Assembly (NCBI GenBank): GCA_040756075.1
Contig: JBFLZX010000006.1
Span: forward strand, 1 to 45,169
Reading direction: 5' to 3'
DNA length: 45,169 nt
Origin: Patescibacteria group bacterium
Lineage (GTDB): Bacteria > Patescibacteriota > JABMPQ01 > JBFLZX01
In this document: positions 8 through 45,169 of the stretch, one piece after another
Numbering within the stretch: position 1 is the first letter of the stretch
How the letters are laid out: the number at the start of each line of letters is the position of its first letter
Notes under the pieces: model-generated
What the model was told of the DNA's origin: nothing
The model's input: only the letters and a program-made list of their open reading frames with translations
Database searches by the model: none
Program-made: the position numbers and the translations under genes

Positions 8-141
8 ATACTAAAATCCCTGGCTCGAGCCTCAGATTTTGGTATGGTAATCTTTTAGCAATTTAAACAGTCTCAATAAATTATCGAGGTTTTGAATCTA
101 AGCGATACTAAAATCCCTGGCTCGAGCTTCAGATTTTGGTA
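8..141. repeat. Two 37-bp palindromic direct repeats (8-44, 105-141) separated by a 60-bp unique spacer; CRISPR-like, may continue beyond the window
   Basis: ATACTAAAATCCCTGGCTCGAGC(C/T)TCAGATTTTGGTA occurs twice with 1 mismatch; ends TACTAAAATC/GATTTTGGTA are near-complementary; central GGCTCGAGCC palindrome. Confidence 0.9.
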
Positions 142-143
142 AA

Positions 144-695
144 CTATTTCAATTTAAAATATTTCAAAATCTCCTCTTGGTGATCAATGGATTTTGCTAC
201 AATATAACGCACATAGGGTTTGATGTTGTAAATTTCTTTTAAAAATTCAATTTCTTTATAACAATCGTAAGGATAAACTAAAACGCTTTCTTGAAGTTTA
301 TAAAATCCTAGAATTTCCAATCTATCGCGAAACATATCGCGCGTATATTTCCTCATATTCGGGATATCAGAAATAACTATCCGGAAAAACCCATCCCAAT
401 GTAAAGGTGTATCGATAAATAAAGAATCAAGATAATATCGAAAAGCATGAGCCTTGCCGGATTTAGTTAGTTCCAAATAATCTATTTTTCCATTTTTTGT
501 TATTTCAATGAATCGCTTATGTTTTAAATAATTAATTGATCTTCGATATTTTTTTCGATCAAATCTATGTTTTTTGTATATAGGCCGGCCCAACGCGCCC
601 ACTAAATTAGGAGCAATAATTGCTATTGACAAAATACCCCCGACAGCAAGCAAACCTAAAATTTTCCCTGTGATATTGTCTTTAATAATCGGCAT
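144..695 (-). CDS. PaaX-family / Cas2-like protein (hydrophobic N-terminus, winged-helix, Cas2-like ferredoxin fold)
   Basis: Motifs LELTKSG, WDGFFRIVISDIP, RDMFRDRLEILGFYKLQESVLVYPY are typical of the PaaX-central/Cas2-like family common in CPR genomes. Confidence 0.8.
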   Translation of the reverse strand: MPIIKDNITGKILGLLAVGGILSIAIIAPNLVGALGRPIYKKHRFDRKKYRRSINYLKHKRFIEITKNGKIDYLELTKSGKAHAFRYYLDSLFIDTPLHWDGFFRIVISDIPNMRKYTRDMFRDRLEILGFYKLQESVLVYPYDCYKEIEFLKEIYNIKPYVRYIVAKSIDHQEEILKYFKLK

Positions 696-716: not shown

Positions 717-745
717 ATTATAGCATTAAACTGCCGAAAAGACAA
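717..745 (-). promoter_or_regulatory. Sigma70-type promoter for the PaaX/Cas2-like gene
   Basis: Minus strand TTGTCT-17 bp-TATAAT with extended -10 TGn (TGcTATAAT), 21 bp upstream of the ATG. Confidence 0.6.
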
Positions 746-758
746 TTTTCTATTGTCT

Positions 759-780
759 AAAAAAAACAGGCTTACGCCTA
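759..780 (-). terminator. Possible short intrinsic terminator
   Basis: Minus strand AGGC-GTAA-GCCT hairpin followed by a T run; the stem is short. Confidence 0.35.
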
Positions 781-825
781 AAATTTTAGACAGCATTATT
801 TCTAATAATCTAAATAAATCTAGAA

Positions 826-1163: not shown

Positions 1164-4151
1164 TTACTCTTTTATTACTTTCTCAAACTCATCGCTTGAC
1201 AAAAATTTCTGTTTTAAAATATCAAGCGCCAAGCCAGTTTTATTCCAGTATTCCACGCCTTCAATATCTGCCGGCCGAACATAAAGAGTCTCATAGATTT
1301 CAGAAATCGCTGCGGTCCGGCCTAAATTTTTTTCAATTTCATAAAGACGATTATCATATTCTTCAGACAAAGCCAGATGGCGGCGTTGATCTTTAGTTAG
1401 GGAAAAATTCGCCTCAAGATATTTTGCTCCGGCTTTGTCTGCTCCCCGTTTTAAGACAATTTGATAAGCTAATTCCGGCTTTGCTAAAGCAGCGCCAATC
1501 GCGCTAAAAATTTCCTCTTGATATTCTTTTGAAACTGAAAGGGCGAATTTCACGCCAAAAATATCAATCGCATCACGACCAGCAATTTCCGGATCCGTTC
1601 TTTCCAGCCAAAATTTCACCCCCTCTTCGTCAAATAATTTTTCCAGATTGTCATCATAAATCCGGTCTAAAATTTTTTGGTATAATATTTTTATTGCTTC
1701 TTCACTGCCCTTTTCTTTCTGAATGGCAAGTAATTTATTATTAAATTCTCCACGAAGACGATCGTTTAAAATTGTAAATTTAATTCCGAGTAAAGTTAAA
1801 GCCTGGCGGTTTTCTGGTCTATAAAAGAAAGCTAAGCCGCCATTTTCTAACTCCTTAACTTTTTTGCCGGCAAACTCTGAATCTGGCGTTTCCCATTTTG
1901 CAAGATTTTCCTCGCTTTGGTCTTTTAAATAATCGCGGTCTAAAAGTAAAGTATAATAATAAACAATTGTCTGCAGACGGTTTAATGTTTTAAAAGTTTT
2001 AATTTCAGTTTCTTTTTTGTCGGCAGAAATTTGATAATAATAAATAAATCTTCCTTTTTCAAAACCATCACTATTTTTATCTGACCACTCGCCGCCTTTT
2101 AAATTCCGCAAAACAACATAATATTTATTATCATTTTTGTCTTGATACACTTTTGTGCTGTTATTGAATGAATTTTGGTTCTCGCCATAACGAAAAGAAA
2201 TTTCTTTTGGTTTTAAAACTTGCTCGTTTGATGAAGTAAAATTCCATTTTAAAACAACCCGTGAATGTTCGCGAAATTGCAAAGAAGACTCAATTTGCAA
2301 TTTATTTTCTAAAATTTCTTCATTTTCTTTTAAAATATCTTCTTCTGGTTCTGACGGCGAAGGCGTTAAAATAGCAGTAGGCGAAGAAGTTGGCGTAGGC
2401 GAAGGGGTTGGCGAAAGAGTCGAAGCCCTCACTGTCAGCATACAAGAATCTTTTTCTCCATTTTCTTTAAAATCTTCATAATTATAAACTAATTCCGGTT
2501 TCGCAATTTTTTTGTTCTCTTTAAAACCTTTTATAAAAGCGCGGTAAATTTTTTCCCATTCTTCCCCGCTATATCCCCAATTTAAATTCTGACTTCCAAG
2601 CTGAAACGGCGAAGCGCCATAAAATATCACTCCTTTTGCTCCTGCCTGCCGTAATTGATAACCAACATATTGGGCATATTCTTCTGATTTAATGACAAAT
2701 CGATTTTTTACACAAGGATAATTTTCTTTCTTGGAAATGCTGTCAACTAAATAAGAAAAAGAAAGATAAACCAGCGAATCATTAAGCTCTAAATCTTGTA
2801 AAGTCATATCAAAAGCATCCAACGAAGAAATTATATAAAGAGAAGGATTGGGAATATCGCCGGTTTTTGGCGGCATATAAAATGAATTCTCTAAAACATC
2901 GTTAGAAATTGTTTTTTGTCTTTGAGCAAGAATATACTGATTTCCTTGAAATTTTATTTCGGAATTATTTTCTATCTTTTTACAGCTTATATCCGGCCCA
3001 GCAACTTTTGAACAATAATCACTGTCTTTTGAAGTATATAAATAAGGAGTATATTTATATTTTTTGTCCGAAAAAGCGTACTCTCCATAAAAGGCGATCA
3101 AAACATTTTTTACCTCGCCGCTTCCTTCTTTTATTCCTTCTTTTGCCGCATTATAAAGATCCTTCCCGCGCTCTTTCCAGTGATAAAGATAACACTCTGA
3201 AGATGATAATCCCTTTGGACAAGCCTCATTTAATCTTTTTGCTTTGTCCAAAAATTCTTCACTGGGCAAAATAGACAAAGTTGGATCTAAACTGCAAAAA
3301 TCATTAACTCGCCAAGGCGCTTCATAAACTTCAAAATCAATATTAATCAAATCGCCCGGCTCATATTTTATTTTTGCCACTCTGTCGGTTGTTAATATTT
3401 TTAAATTCACTTCCTGCCAGAGATTTCCCTGATAAGAAGGATCAAATACTTTTGGATGAGGATATTTGCTGTAAAGTTTATCCGTAAGATAAGGCTGAAC
3501 ACAGACATTATTTTTATTACAAACATAAGAGAGTGAGCAATCAGAATCATTTTTACATTTTTTACAATCAGAATCTTTACTAACATCACAAGTTTCTTTT
3601 TTTGGACAATGCCAAGGATTAAAATTTGGCACATCAAAAATCGCTTGACAATATTCTTGCGCCCCCGGCTTTCCTGCCTGTTTTTCTTCAAATTTTTCTT
3701 TTGTGCAGTTATTAAATATTCCGGGATAAAATTTTTCATTAAAACCGTAATCAGCGGGACTAATGTTATGGACAATTTTAAATCCCAAATTCCGGGCTAC
3801 CTCAACTGCTTTTTTATTCAAATCAGCGGCATCTTTGCCGCTGTCATAACTTGGCCTTAATTTTATATAAGTAAAACCTATATCTTTTAATTCTCTAAAT
3901 TTTTTCTCTAAAATACACAATCTTTTTTCTTGTTCATCTGTTTTGCTTTTACATTCTTCATTAGTATTTGCCGTCTGCATTATTGAAGAAGAAGTAATTT
4001 CTGTCGTATCAGGAGCAATAATCAATTCTTCCGGAGCAATAACCCCGCTGAAATATAAGATGCCGCCGACTCCGGCCAAAACGGCAACAAAAACCGCCAA
4101 TCCGACAGCCAATTTTAAACCTACCCCCTTTGTTTTCACTTGCGTTTTCAT
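1164..4151 (-). CDS. Large membrane-anchored surface protein (paralog A): N-terminal TM, possible glycoside-hydrolase-like barrel with Cys-rich insert, PT linker, DUF4214-like C-terminal repeats
   Basis: 995-aa ORF; TM LAVGLAVFVAVLAGVGGILYF; SPTPSPTPTSSPT linker; repeats such as YQIVLKRGADKAG and YETLYVRPADIEGVEYW. Confidence 0.75.
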   Translation of the reverse strand: MKTQVKTKGVGLKLAVGLAVFVAVLAGVGGILYFSGVIAPEELIIAPDTTEITSSSIMQTANTNEECKSKTDEQEKRLCILEKKFRELKDIGFTYIKLRPSYDSGKDAADLNKKAVEVARNLGFKIVHNISPADYGFNEKFYPGIFNNCTKEKFEEKQAGKPGAQEYCQAIFDVPNFNPWHCPKKETCDVSKDSDCKKCKNDSDCSLSYVCNKNNVCVQPYLTDKLYSKYPHPKVFDPSYQGNLWQEVNLKILTTDRVAKIKYEPGDLINIDFEVYEAPWRVNDFCSLDPTLSILPSEEFLDKAKRLNEACPKGLSSSECYLYHWKERGKDLYNAAKEGIKEGSGEVKNVLIAFYGEYAFSDKKYKYTPYLYTSKDSDYCSKVAGPDISCKKIENNSEIKFQGNQYILAQRQKTISNDVLENSFYMPPKTGDIPNPSLYIISSLDAFDMTLQDLELNDSLVYLSFSYLVDSISKKENYPCVKNRFVIKSEEYAQYVGYQLRQAGAKGVIFYGASPFQLGSQNLNWGYSGEEWEKIYRAFIKGFKENKKIAKPELVYNYEDFKENGEKDSCMLTVRASTLSPTPSPTPTSSPTAILTPSPSEPEEDILKENEEILENKLQIESSLQFREHSRVVLKWNFTSSNEQVLKPKEISFRYGENQNSFNNSTKVYQDKNDNKYYVVLRNLKGGEWSDKNSDGFEKGRFIYYYQISADKKETEIKTFKTLNRLQTIVYYYTLLLDRDYLKDQSEENLAKWETPDSEFAGKKVKELENGGLAFFYRPENRQALTLLGIKFTILNDRLRGEFNNKLLAIQKEKGSEEAIKILYQKILDRIYDDNLEKLFDEEGVKFWLERTDPEIAGRDAIDIFGVKFALSVSKEYQEEIFSAIGAALAKPELAYQIVLKRGADKAGAKYLEANFSLTKDQRRHLALSEEYDNRLYEIEKNLGRTAAISEIYETLYVRPADIEGVEYWNKTGLALDILKQKFLSSDEFEKVIKE

Positions 4152-27338: not shown

Positions 27339-28640
27339 ATGAAATACTTCATTTATACTTTTGGCTGTCAGATGAATAAGTCAGACTCGGAAAGAATTGC
27401 TGGTTTTTTAGAAAACCAAAATTTTGTTATGGTAAAAAATTTTAAAGAGGCAGATTGGGTGATTTTAAATACTTGCTCGGTGCGTCAATCGGCAGAAGAC
27501 CGCGTTTTTGGTCTGATTAAAAATTTAAAAAAATTAAAAAATCGGCCGAAAATTGCTATTACTGGCTGTATGGCGACAAAAAATACAAAAGAATTGAAAA
27601 AGAAAGCAGACTTAGTTTTTGAAATCGAAAATTTACATCAACTAAACAATTACCTAAAAAAATTTCACATTTCAGGCGATAGCTTAAAATGTGAAAAAAA
27701 GAATTTTACTGATTCTTATTTTAAAATTTCTCCTCATTGCGAAAATAATTTTCATGCTTATGTCCCAATTGCAACGGGTTGTAATAATTTTTGCACTTAC
27801 TGCGTTGTACCCTATGTCAGAGGTCGCGAAGTCAGCCGTCCACTTGATGAAATTTTATGTGAAATTAAAAATCTATTAAAACAAGGATATAAAGCTATTA
27901 CTTTAATTGGCCAAAACGTAAATTCTTACGGCCATGATTTTAAAAAACAACCTGATTTTCCGAAGCTTTTGCAAAAAATTGAAAAGATTCAAAGTAATTT
28001 TTGGCTTTGGTTTATTACTTCACATCCAAAAGATATGTCTGACCAGTTGATTAAAACTATCGCCAAATCAAAAAAGATTTGCCGCTATATTCATTTACCA
28101 ACACAAGCGGGAGACAATAAAGTACTCGCCGCAATGAATCGCGGCTATACGCGAGAAAAATATTTAAAATTAATTGCTAAAATTAAAAAGGCTCTCTCCG
28201 ACGCCTCTCTTTCTACTGATATTATTGTTGGCTTTCCTGGCGAAACAAAAGCGCAGTTTCAGAAAACTGTTGACTTATTTAAAAAAGTAAAGTTTGATAT
28301 GGCTTATATTGCCGAGTACTCACCTCGACCCGGCACTGCTGCTTACAATTTAAAAGATAATGTTCCATCCCAAGAAAAAAAACGCCGCCATAAAGTTCTG
28401 GATAAATTGCTTCGTCAAATAGCTTTAGAAAAAAACAAAAAATTAATTGGAAAAACTCTTGAAGCTCTTATTGAAGCGAAAAAAGGTAATTTTTACTTTG
28501 GCAAAACAAAGACTTTTAAAACTATAAAAATAACTAATAACCAACAACTAATAACCAACAACCAATTAATTGGCCAAATTATTCCAGTAAAAATAAAAAA
28601 GGCTTATGATTTTGGATTAGAAGGTAAATCAACCTCTTGA
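27339..28640 (+). CDS. miaB: tRNA-2-methylthio-N6-dimethylallyladenosine synthase
   Basis: TFGCQMNKSDSE, NTCSVRQSAE, radical SAM CNNFCTYC, TSHP, DIIVGFPGET, YSPRPGT, C-terminal TRAM domain; start at 27339 or 27321. Confidence 0.93.
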   Translation: MKYFIYTFGCQMNKSDSERIAGFLENQNFVMVKNFKEADWVILNTCSVRQSAEDRVFGLIKNLKKLKNRPKIAITGCMATKNTKELKKKADLVFEIENLHQLNNYLKKFHISGDSLKCEKKNFTDSYFKISPHCENNFHAYVPIATGCNNFCTYCVVPYVRGREVSRPLDEILCEIKNLLKQGYKAITLIGQNVNSYGHDFKKQPDFPKLLQKIEKIQSNFWLWFITSHPKDMSDQLIKTIAKSKKICRYIHLPTQAGDNKVLAAMNRGYTREKYLKLIAKIKKALSDASLSTDIIVGFPGETKAQFQKTVDLFKKVKFDMAYIAEYSPRPGTAAYNLKDNVPSQEKKRRHKVLDKLLRQIALEKNKKLIGKTLEALIEAKKGNFYFGKTKTFKTIKITNNQQLITNNQLIGQIIPVKIKKAYDFGLEGKSTS

Positions 28641-31742: not shown

Positions 31743-31802
31743 ATTTTTTCCATTACTACATTTTATCGCGGTCGCGAAAATTTGTAGTAGTCATTTTTAC
31801 TC

Positions 31803-44941: not shown

Positions 44942-45081
44942 GTATTTTAAAACTACTTAATATTATAAAAACAAAACTTGAAATTAACATTTTCTTATTG
45001 AGATTTTCAAATGTATTTCAATTATAAGCAAAGCTTGAAATTGAACTTTCTTTAATTACCTTGAGTTACGAAATTCATCGT

Positions 45082-45141
45082 TGTCATTCCGAGTCCCGAT
45101 CTACCCCGATAACATCGGGGTTTATCGGGACGAGGAATCTC
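45082..45141 (+). repeat. REP-like left arm with doubly nested CCCGAT..ATCGGG palindromes; the right arm probably lies beyond the window
   Basis: TGTCATTCCGAG-TCCCGAT-cta-CCCCGAT-aac-ATCGGGG-ttt-ATCGGGA-CGAGGAATCTC. Confidence 0.85.
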
Positions 45142-45169
45142 TGGCGAATGCCAGATCTCAAACAAATTC

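Follow-up and report, generated by a model that had tools for sequence, protein, structure and literature searches.

The left end of contig JBFLZX010000006.1, from a Patescibacteria group bacterium (assembly GCA_040756075.1), carries a small minus-strand gene whose product resembles the repressor PaaX and the CRISPR (clustered regularly interspaced short palindromic repeats) protein Cas2, and two nearly identical 37-nt palindromes stand directly behind its stop codon. What is the relation between the protein and these palindromes? We examined the whole stretch of DNA (45,169 nt, here called the window; contig C6 in our numbering), the rest of the assembly (G000: 1.49 Mb, 113 contigs, 97.8% complete) and homologous loci from other genomes. 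The results favoured, with a probability of roughly 0.6, a reading in which the protein, here called mini-PaaX, is a dimeric PaaX-type binder of three local palindromes that autoregulates its own gene and controls or insulates the neighbouring FxLYD/rodA operon. Among the observations behind this reading are that genes of the family have palindromes of their own, and that one residue of the Cas2-like domain covaries with the bases at the palindrome centre.

The two near-palindromes, D1 (8..44, no strand) and D2 (105..141, no strand), have TACCAAAAT-type arms and a GGC-TCGA-GCC core, and they start 97 nt apart. They differ by a single mismatch within the core stem (C/T at 31/128) and enclose a unique spacer of 60 nt (45..104, no strand). 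When up to three mismatches were allowed, the window contained two matches to the repeat, and none was found in any of 100 dinucleotide shuffles. The mini-PaaX gene (144..695, minus strand, 183 aa), defined by its open reading frame (ORF), Pfam matches and an AlphaFold2 (AF2) model, ends in a TAG (146-144) that is separated by 2 nt from the end of D2 at 141. Between this stop codon and the repeats, the minus strand showed no terminator-like site. Folded as RNA, D1 gave -12.1 kcal/mol (z -3.1) and D2 gave -7.8 kcal/mol (z -1.6). A sigma-70-type promoter is predicted on the minus strand at 717..745 by consensus match only, with the -35 hexamer TTGTCT at 745-740, a 17-nt spacer and an extended -10 element (TG-TATAAT) ending at 717 (10/12 consensus matches). 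The initial annotation had described the repeats, their folding around the GGC-TCGA core, the gene's own extended -10 promoter and the lack of a visible terminator before the repeats, and all four descriptions were confirmed.

A third site, U (754..792, no strand), was found 8 nt upstream of the -35 hexamer. U belongs to the same class as an imperfect palindrome of 39 nt. It combines TGTCTAAAA arms with the core AGGC-GTAA-GCCT, its RNA folding energy is -16.9 kcal/mol (z -5.2), and two TCGA-core sites in tandem on contig C5 are its homologs. As we read the sequence, the CTAAAAT half-site of U keeps the register and the distance to the centre that it has in D1 and D2. The locus thus has three class sites, U upstream and D2 and D1 downstream, whose arms span 37-39 bp; the layout is site-gene-site, with the downstream site doubled and U as an imperfect variant. 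We also considered the sites as intrinsic terminators and rejected this, since T-runs precede and A-runs follow the GC core, which is the reverse orientation; U alone shows a T-run after its GC stem. For positions 1-1400, no Rfam or tRNA scan came near a gathering score.

The genome was found to encode 12 paralogs of this family (25-59% identity), and a profile of the 12 recovered exactly those 12 when run against the 5,338 ORFs that are 60 aa or longer. All 12 have a private class palindrome within 250 nt of the start or stop codon, and a first, strict pass placed palindromes on both sides of 6. The class has a common design of about 36 bp, in which AT-rich arms flank a GC-rich core of 8-12 bp around a palindromic tetranucleotide, and the arm and core sequences are private to each paralog. 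A genome scan for sites with at least 14 of 18 symmetric positions, a GC-rich centre and AT-rich arms returned 72 sites, against 1-6 in five shuffled genomes. Removal of one duplicate shared by contigs C26 and C6 left 71; D2 was missed by this strict scan. Thirteen of the 71 palindromes lie no more than 250 nt from paralog genes, against 0.27 expected (binomial P 2e-18), and for intergenic palindromes only, the count was 12 of 52 against 0.9 expected (P 8e-11). A doubt raised with the initial annotation was that the repeat might be a repetitive extragenic palindrome (REP) dispersed over the genome and unlinked to this gene family. The class is indeed dispersed, but the exact 37-mer is unique to the locus and the linkage to the genes is strong.

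The family is patchily distributed. PF20803, the Pfam family of the Cas2-like domain, had its 12 members in this genome, whereas a search of 15 further genomes from the order gave none (of these 16 genomes, 11 are at least 90% complete), and the mini-PaaX family was found in 9 of 61 relatives overall. This pattern points to acquisition followed by expansion, or to repeated loss.

The initial annotation had also raised the prospect that homologs carry palindromes of their own, and this held at loci from other genomes as it did for the 12 paralogs. We collected 104 homologous loci, 24 from GTDB species genomes and 80 from metagenomes, of which 93 have at least 150 nt on both flanks. All are from Patescibacteria where titled, and none exceeds 43% identity to the window protein; no close ortholog was found, with best identities of 38% in genome contigs and 43% in metagenome contigs. 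Class palindromes were present at 76 of the 93 loci (both sides 51, upstream only 10, downstream only 15) and at neither side of 17. Palindrome density near the gene ends was 21 times that in the rest of the loci, and the upstream and downstream copies were at least 75% identical in 46 of the 51 loci with both. Nine of 14 further loci from phylum relatives also had class palindromes, and searches with two peptide patterns returned 376 metagenomic relatives. No homolog of mini-PaaX was found on viral contigs, and PADLOC and PHROGs scans gave nothing meaningful.

A covariance model of the sites was built from 65 sites, all of them from other genomes. At E<=0.01 across the 61 relatives, it matched only this genome (17 matches) and one other, which is protein-bearing. 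At E<=0.5, it found 20 distinct sites in this genome, whereas five order mates without the protein gave none. The model is specific but insensitive, giving weak matches in 2 of 5 protein-positive genomes and missing the window's own imperfect repeats at E<=1.

These data bear directly on the headline of the initial annotation, a minimal CRISPR-like array working with a stand-alone Cas2. A Cas2-fold domain with a conserved Asp, and two repeats around a unique spacer, are what had suggested it. The array was thought possibly to continue beyond the window edge. However, positions 1-127 of the window recur unchanged as the final 127 nt of contig C26, and on C26 only 30 unique nt lie to the left of D1 before the start codon of the next minus-strand gene, which encodes a 304-aa FxLYD-domain protein. 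Whole-genome pattern and half-repeat searches found no further copy of the 37-mer, the third match being the C26/C6 overlap itself. Overlaps of 127 nt recur at many other contig ends in the assembly, which points to an assembler k-mer effect. A search for Cas1 (PF01867) gave no match in this genome, while the same search was positive in 7 of 14 genomes, and the Cas2 model TIGR01573 scored mini-PaaX at 14 bits, below its cut-off of 24.5. The spacer had no match elsewhere in the genome apart from the C26/C6 overlap and none in 50,697 phage records, a collection from which phages of this lineage may be missing. The homologs show a site-gene-site layout instead of arrays. As far as sequence can show, the CRISPR-like reading is refuted, and we give it next to no probability. 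The proposed protein-plus-repeat module itself stood, as did the locus-specific nature of its repeat, and of the three functions suggested for it (operator array, processed RNA array or mobility sites) the operator array fits best.

We next describe the protein. Residues 99-174 match the PaaX_M (Cas2-like) domain PF20803 (E 8e-16, 58.3 bits against a cut-off of 24), as the initial annotation had recognised, and weak Pfam winged-helix matches cover residues 47-84. In the AF2 model (predicted local distance difference test score 79, predicted template modelling score 0.67), a long N-terminal helix at 8-25, of low confidence, is followed by a winged helix made up of helices 38-42, 47-59 and 78-91 with a hairpin at 63-76, and then by a domain of beta-alpha-beta-beta-alpha-beta topology at 104-179. 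Foldseek returned E. coli PaaX as the top PDB match (8a39, E 1.6e-4, probability 1.0), next the PaaX-like protein 3l09, and then Cas2 (6jhz and 3exc) and VapD, with 3ui3 also among these Cas2/VapD matches. When the paralog profile was compared with PDB sequences, the winged helix-turn-helix of AspA scored 4e-4, PaaX 1.4e-3 (residues 46-152) and Cas2 0.01; the 8a39 matches, by Foldseek and by profile, span residues 46-152. We divide the protein into a hydrophobic N-terminal segment (~10-36), a winged helix (~38-91) and the PaaX_M/Cas2-like domain (99-174). The helical C-terminal, inducer-binding domain of PaaX is missing, as the protein ends at 183 and has no Pfam match beyond 174. Because this domain is missing and the PaaX equivalog model TIGR02277 gave only 29.8 bits against a cut-off of 264.55, we regard mini-PaaX as a truncated member of the PaaX superfamily and not as an ortholog. 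The neighbouring genes encode a DUF4214 protein, the FxLYD protein and RodA, with no paa genes nearby.

To relate protein to site, mutual information was calculated between every alignment column and every half-site position. Of 83 non-redundant protein-site pairs, two (locus L086 and the C7 paralog) were dropped because their best site is not of the class, leaving 81. The top pair was the residue after the invariant D-I-P, which is N113 in the window protein, and the second base from the dyad (mutual information 1.13 bits, z 18.8). Proteins with Q, H, K or Y after D-I-P had CATG as the central tetranucleotide in 16/16 pairs. Those with E had GATC in 36, TATA in 6, GGTC in 4, GGCC in 2 and GACC, GTAC and TGTA in 1 each, so that E was paired with G..C tetramers in 44/51. 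With N, the tetranucleotides were TCGA (4), ATAT (3), CTAG (1) and ATAG (1), making up 9/9. R and V were each found once, with ACGT, and D was found with TATA (2) and TCCA (1). The window protein combines N113 with TCGA, and the same combination was seen in the 59%-identical C63 paralog and at the metagenomic loci L107 and L125. In independent pairs, taken from a tree built without the covarying column, the direction of change was the same in 4-5/6, 4/4 and 4/4, and opposite in 0. At the level of sequence, the residue after D-I-P predicts the central tetranucleotide. The Asp of the VISDIP motif (D110), to which the initial annotation had drawn attention, was invariant in 12/12 paralogs and in 81/81 tabulated family members.

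Cas2 dimerises with the corresponding Asp loops opposite one another at the subunit interface, and residue 113 of a mini-PaaX dimer would by this likeness sit over the dyad of a bound palindrome. The operator of E. coli PaaX reads TGATTC(N27)GAATCA, spanning 39 bp, and PaaX represses its own promoter, according to a published review (PMC9493321). In geometry, D1, D2 and U match this operator of two inverted half-sites about 27 bp apart. Given the same 39-bp span, we model the Cas2-like dimer on the centre of the site and the winged helices on its arms. Most likely, then, a mini-PaaX dimer binds palindromes of about 36-39 bp with PaaX-type operator geometry. Its two winged helices would read the AT-rich outer arms, and the loop D110-I-P-N113, after the first strand of the Cas2-like dimerisation domain, would lie over the dyad and read the central tetranucleotide. 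The protein would work with a predicted N-terminal anchor and no ligand-binding C-domain. Of the three sites, U stands just upstream of the gene's own promoter, D2 directly past the stop codon and D1 shortly before the next gene. With them, the protein would probably autoregulate its gene, presumably by repression, and control or insulate the FxLYD-protein/rodA operon downstream.

Mini-PaaX shares with PaaX (E. coli W, 8a39; Jannaschia, 3l09) a winged helix followed by the PF20803 domain, and its sites share with the PaaX operator, as quoted in PMC9493321, two outer half-sites spanning about 39 bp. It differs in its length of 183 aa, without the ligand-binding domain or the paa neighbourhood. 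Also unlike PaaX, mini-PaaX has a hydrophobic N-terminus, its sites have a conserved GC-rich core whose bases vary together with a residue of the Cas2 domain, the gene is bracketed by sites, and each of the 12 paralogs has sites of its own. We see the module as a variant of the PaaX repressor/operator theme with an unusual base readout by the Cas2 domain and an unexplained spread of sites. If this reading holds, mini-PaaX represents a large, undescribed branch of the PaaX family in Patescibacteria, in which a Cas2-fold domain takes part in base-specific DNA recognition and many protein/site pairs follow a simple residue-to-base rule. It would bear on regulation in organisms with very few known regulators and on the origin of Cas2, and it would offer candidate orthogonal repressor/operator parts. 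Literature searches, whose coverage did not extend to subscription papers, found no paper on a PaaX/Cas2-like family with palindromes.

The closest analogue of the window was the metagenomic locus L125, which encodes a D-I-P-N protein and has TCGA-core sites, one upstream and two downstream, the latter 98 nt apart (97 nt in the window). At L125 (1270-1330 and 2140-2210), the distal palindrome and about 35 nt after it duplicate the promoter/operator region of the gene almost exactly. By analogy, this likeness suggests that the downstream copy may put the next gene under the same control. In the duplicated region of L125, a TTGACA is embedded in the palindrome arm.

Several results weigh against the operator reading. 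U has its centre about 62 nt ahead of the predicted transcription start and lies outside the core promoter, a position that is not typical for a simple repressor. The stretch from D1 to the start codon of the next gene has no predicted sigma-70-like or consensus promoter. The sign tests on the independent protein-site pairs are underpowered, with p between 0.06 and 0.125 each. In the genome at large, 58 of the 71 class palindromes are not adjacent to a paralog, and a pure operator role does not explain the approximately 10 palindromes that lie in frame within genes or the 5 that lie between convergent genes (by crude gene calls). Finally, within-family deviations from the majority base were mirrored in both arms 51 times, restricted to one arm 98 times and different in both arms 7 times. 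About 5 mirrored deviations were estimated under independence, and the excess suggests that palindromy itself is being maintained.

Such results recall a rival reading, in which the palindromes are selfish or domesticated elements that the cognate mini-PaaX nicks, cuts or helps to copy or maintain, in the manner of REP-associated tyrosine transposases (RAYT) with REP or REP doublets forming hairpins (REPIN). On this view, D1 and D2 (8-141) would be two copies of such an element left next to their gene. The excess of class palindromes over shuffled genomes, the mirrored arm changes and the patchy family, with 12 copies here and none in the other genomes of the order, all fit this explanation. 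The same is true of the model of foreign sites, which finds its sites here and none in the protein-less order mates, and of the invariant D110. As in REP/REPIN-RAYT systems, palindromic repeats particular to the gene stand on its flanks, relatives of these repeats are scattered through intergenic DNA, and every class of protein is paired with its own class of repeat. At least 49 of 72 sites (D2 added back) fall into arm/core families of at least three members, with 3-8 members each, and each family includes or resembles a paralog-flanking site; the dispersed palindromes are mostly intergenic. One example in the window is the intergenic palindrome at 31754..31789 (no strand), with TACTACATTT arms and an GCGGTCGC core, whose family flanks the C98 paralog. 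However, mini-PaaX consists of a winged helix and PaaX_M only and is no HUH Y1 transposase, the family copy numbers are small (2-8, in place of the hundreds of REP), the paralogs are old at 25-59% identity, and viral contigs yielded no homolog. PaaX is not known to have nuclease activity, and template switching that corrects quasipalindromes could produce mirrored arm changes with no protein involved. We consider this explanation unlikely, though far from negligible. Its more specific form, in which the palindromes propagate themselves and a Cas2-fold domain with its invariant Asp loop on the dyad nicks, copies or maintains them, is a little more doubtful still. If it were true, it would amount to a RAYT/REP-like partnership built on the Cas2 fold, and the role of Cas2 before CRISPR could have been the sequence-specific handling of palindromic repeats.

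Unlike REP/REPIN copies, some of the palindromes lie in frame inside genes. Our listing contained 16 rows, of which 6 were discounted as chance, low-complexity or gene-end cases, leaving about 10 that are convincing. The prmC gene (C26 2618-3556) contains two class palindromes, with TCGA and GATC cores 94 nt apart, inside an in-frame segment of 57 aa (residues 188-244; C26 3179-3352). This segment is missing in 11 of 12 order relatives; the flanks (query 6-187 and 245-310) match the relatives as two segments that are 0-45 nt apart (0-24 nt in ten). The PrmC motif past the insert reads NLPY in place of the usual NPPY. In miaB, an in-frame palindrome at 27662..27697 (no strand) belongs to the family of another paralog, has TTTCACATTT arms and encodes FHISGDSLKCEK. 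The 12-aa insert is absent from a 60%-identical ortholog (G006), and the peptide KFHIS..KCEK occurs in the same frame in three proteins, MiaB and two others. Palindromic elements inserted in frame into housekeeping genes, where they add a peptide segment, have a precedent in the Rickettsia palindromic elements (RPE), as set out in a review (PMC10969869). RPE and the present palindromes alike are inserted in frame into conserved genes, here prmC and miaB among others, and are absent from orthologs. They differ in that RPE are about 150 bp long with no known cognate protein, whereas the unit here measures 36 bp, or 171 nt where prmC carries two palindromes in one segment, and is tied to a protein family. 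A second question raised by this system is how, in a reduced genome, 36-bp palindromes came to spread into essential genes.

Two further observations concern these palindromes. MiaB and a MiaB-like paralog (C2:3298-3333) carry palindromes of different families, in frame and at the same linker position (~residue 114). A shared composite two-palindrome element, comprising the window pair, the prmC insert and the pairs on C5, C14 and C63, was considered and rejected, since similarity is essentially confined to the palindromes.

The position of D2 just past the stop codon, with no terminator before it, raises the alternative that the module acts on RNA. Here, hairpins at the 3' end of the gene transcript and in the 5' leader of the next gene would be bound or cut by a Cas2/VapD-like domain, with the tetranucleotide as the loop. 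The hairpins are stable, their loop would consist of the covarying bases, selection on a stem would agree with the mirrored arm changes, and some of the fold-matching Cas2/VapD relatives are called RNases in their PDB titles. Mini-PaaX does share with Cas2 and VapD a ferredoxin-like fold, a conserved Asp at the end of strand 1 and weak sequence matches (6jhz, 0.01). However, the upstream copies lie at or before the promoter region in most loci, and the site span equals that of the double-stranded PaaX operator. The palindromes are perfect, with equivalent strands, as a dimer on duplex DNA would need. Unlike Cas2, mini-PaaX occurs without Cas1 or an array, and unlike both Cas2 and VapD its domain is fused to a winged helix, here a canonical one, and appears to read duplex DNA. 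An action on RNA is, in our view, quite improbable.

The N-terminus suggests yet another role. Residues ~10-36 are uninterruptedly hydrophobic or small and are followed by a very basic stretch, which predicts an N-terminal membrane anchor. The 19-residue Kyte-Doolittle maximum is 2.16 in the window protein; 4 of 12 paralogs reach 2.0 or more, and 61 of 104 homologs reach 1.8 or more. Such an anchor could hold the chromosome at the membrane through its bound sites, as a tether or centromere-like system serving organisation or segregation. Among PDB sequences, the winged helix is matched best by AspA and TubR (4rs8, E 4e-4; 4asn also listed), two centromere-binding proteins that likewise bind palindromic sites. 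However, half of the paralogs have no hydrophobic segment and keep the same site layout, AspA and TubR have no Cas2-like domain, and no partition ATPase or other partition gene is found at the mini-PaaX locus. The hydrophobic segment may also be helix 1 of the winged helix, in a region where AF2 confidence is low. We regard a tethering role as very improbable, and the operator reading stays the preferred one.

The surroundings of the locus showed several other features. Upstream of the mini-PaaX gene, a 468-nt gap contains nested dispersed repeats at 825-1065, in which an element of about 110 nt (825-902 plus 1028-1065) is split by a 130-nt hairpin element (899-1028). Copies with 70-100% identity were found on more than 20 contigs, one of them also upstream of the C13 and C28 paralogs, and no Rfam match was obtained for these repeats. 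Farther upstream, 1164-4151 encodes a 995-aa secreted or anchored protein, with a C-terminal DUF4214 as its sole family match; the gene has its own terminator-like hairpin at 1143-1117. At the right edge of the window (45050-45169), there is a GC-rich palindromic repeat of the TCCCGATC...GATCGGGA type, present in more than 15 copies genome-wide. Several copies of this type lie near contig ends, and the repeat probably causes assembly breaks.

On C26, the only family match of the 304-aa protein next to D1 was the FxLYD domain (24.1 bits against a cut-off of 23), and its gene is followed by rodA/ftsW, the L25 ribosomal protein gene and the operon for ATP synthase. In this operon, the genes for subunits c and b have between them, at C26 4562-4924 (L004), a 120-aa, four-helix-bundle-like ORF, which presumably resembles the '23S rRNA intervening sequence' proteins.

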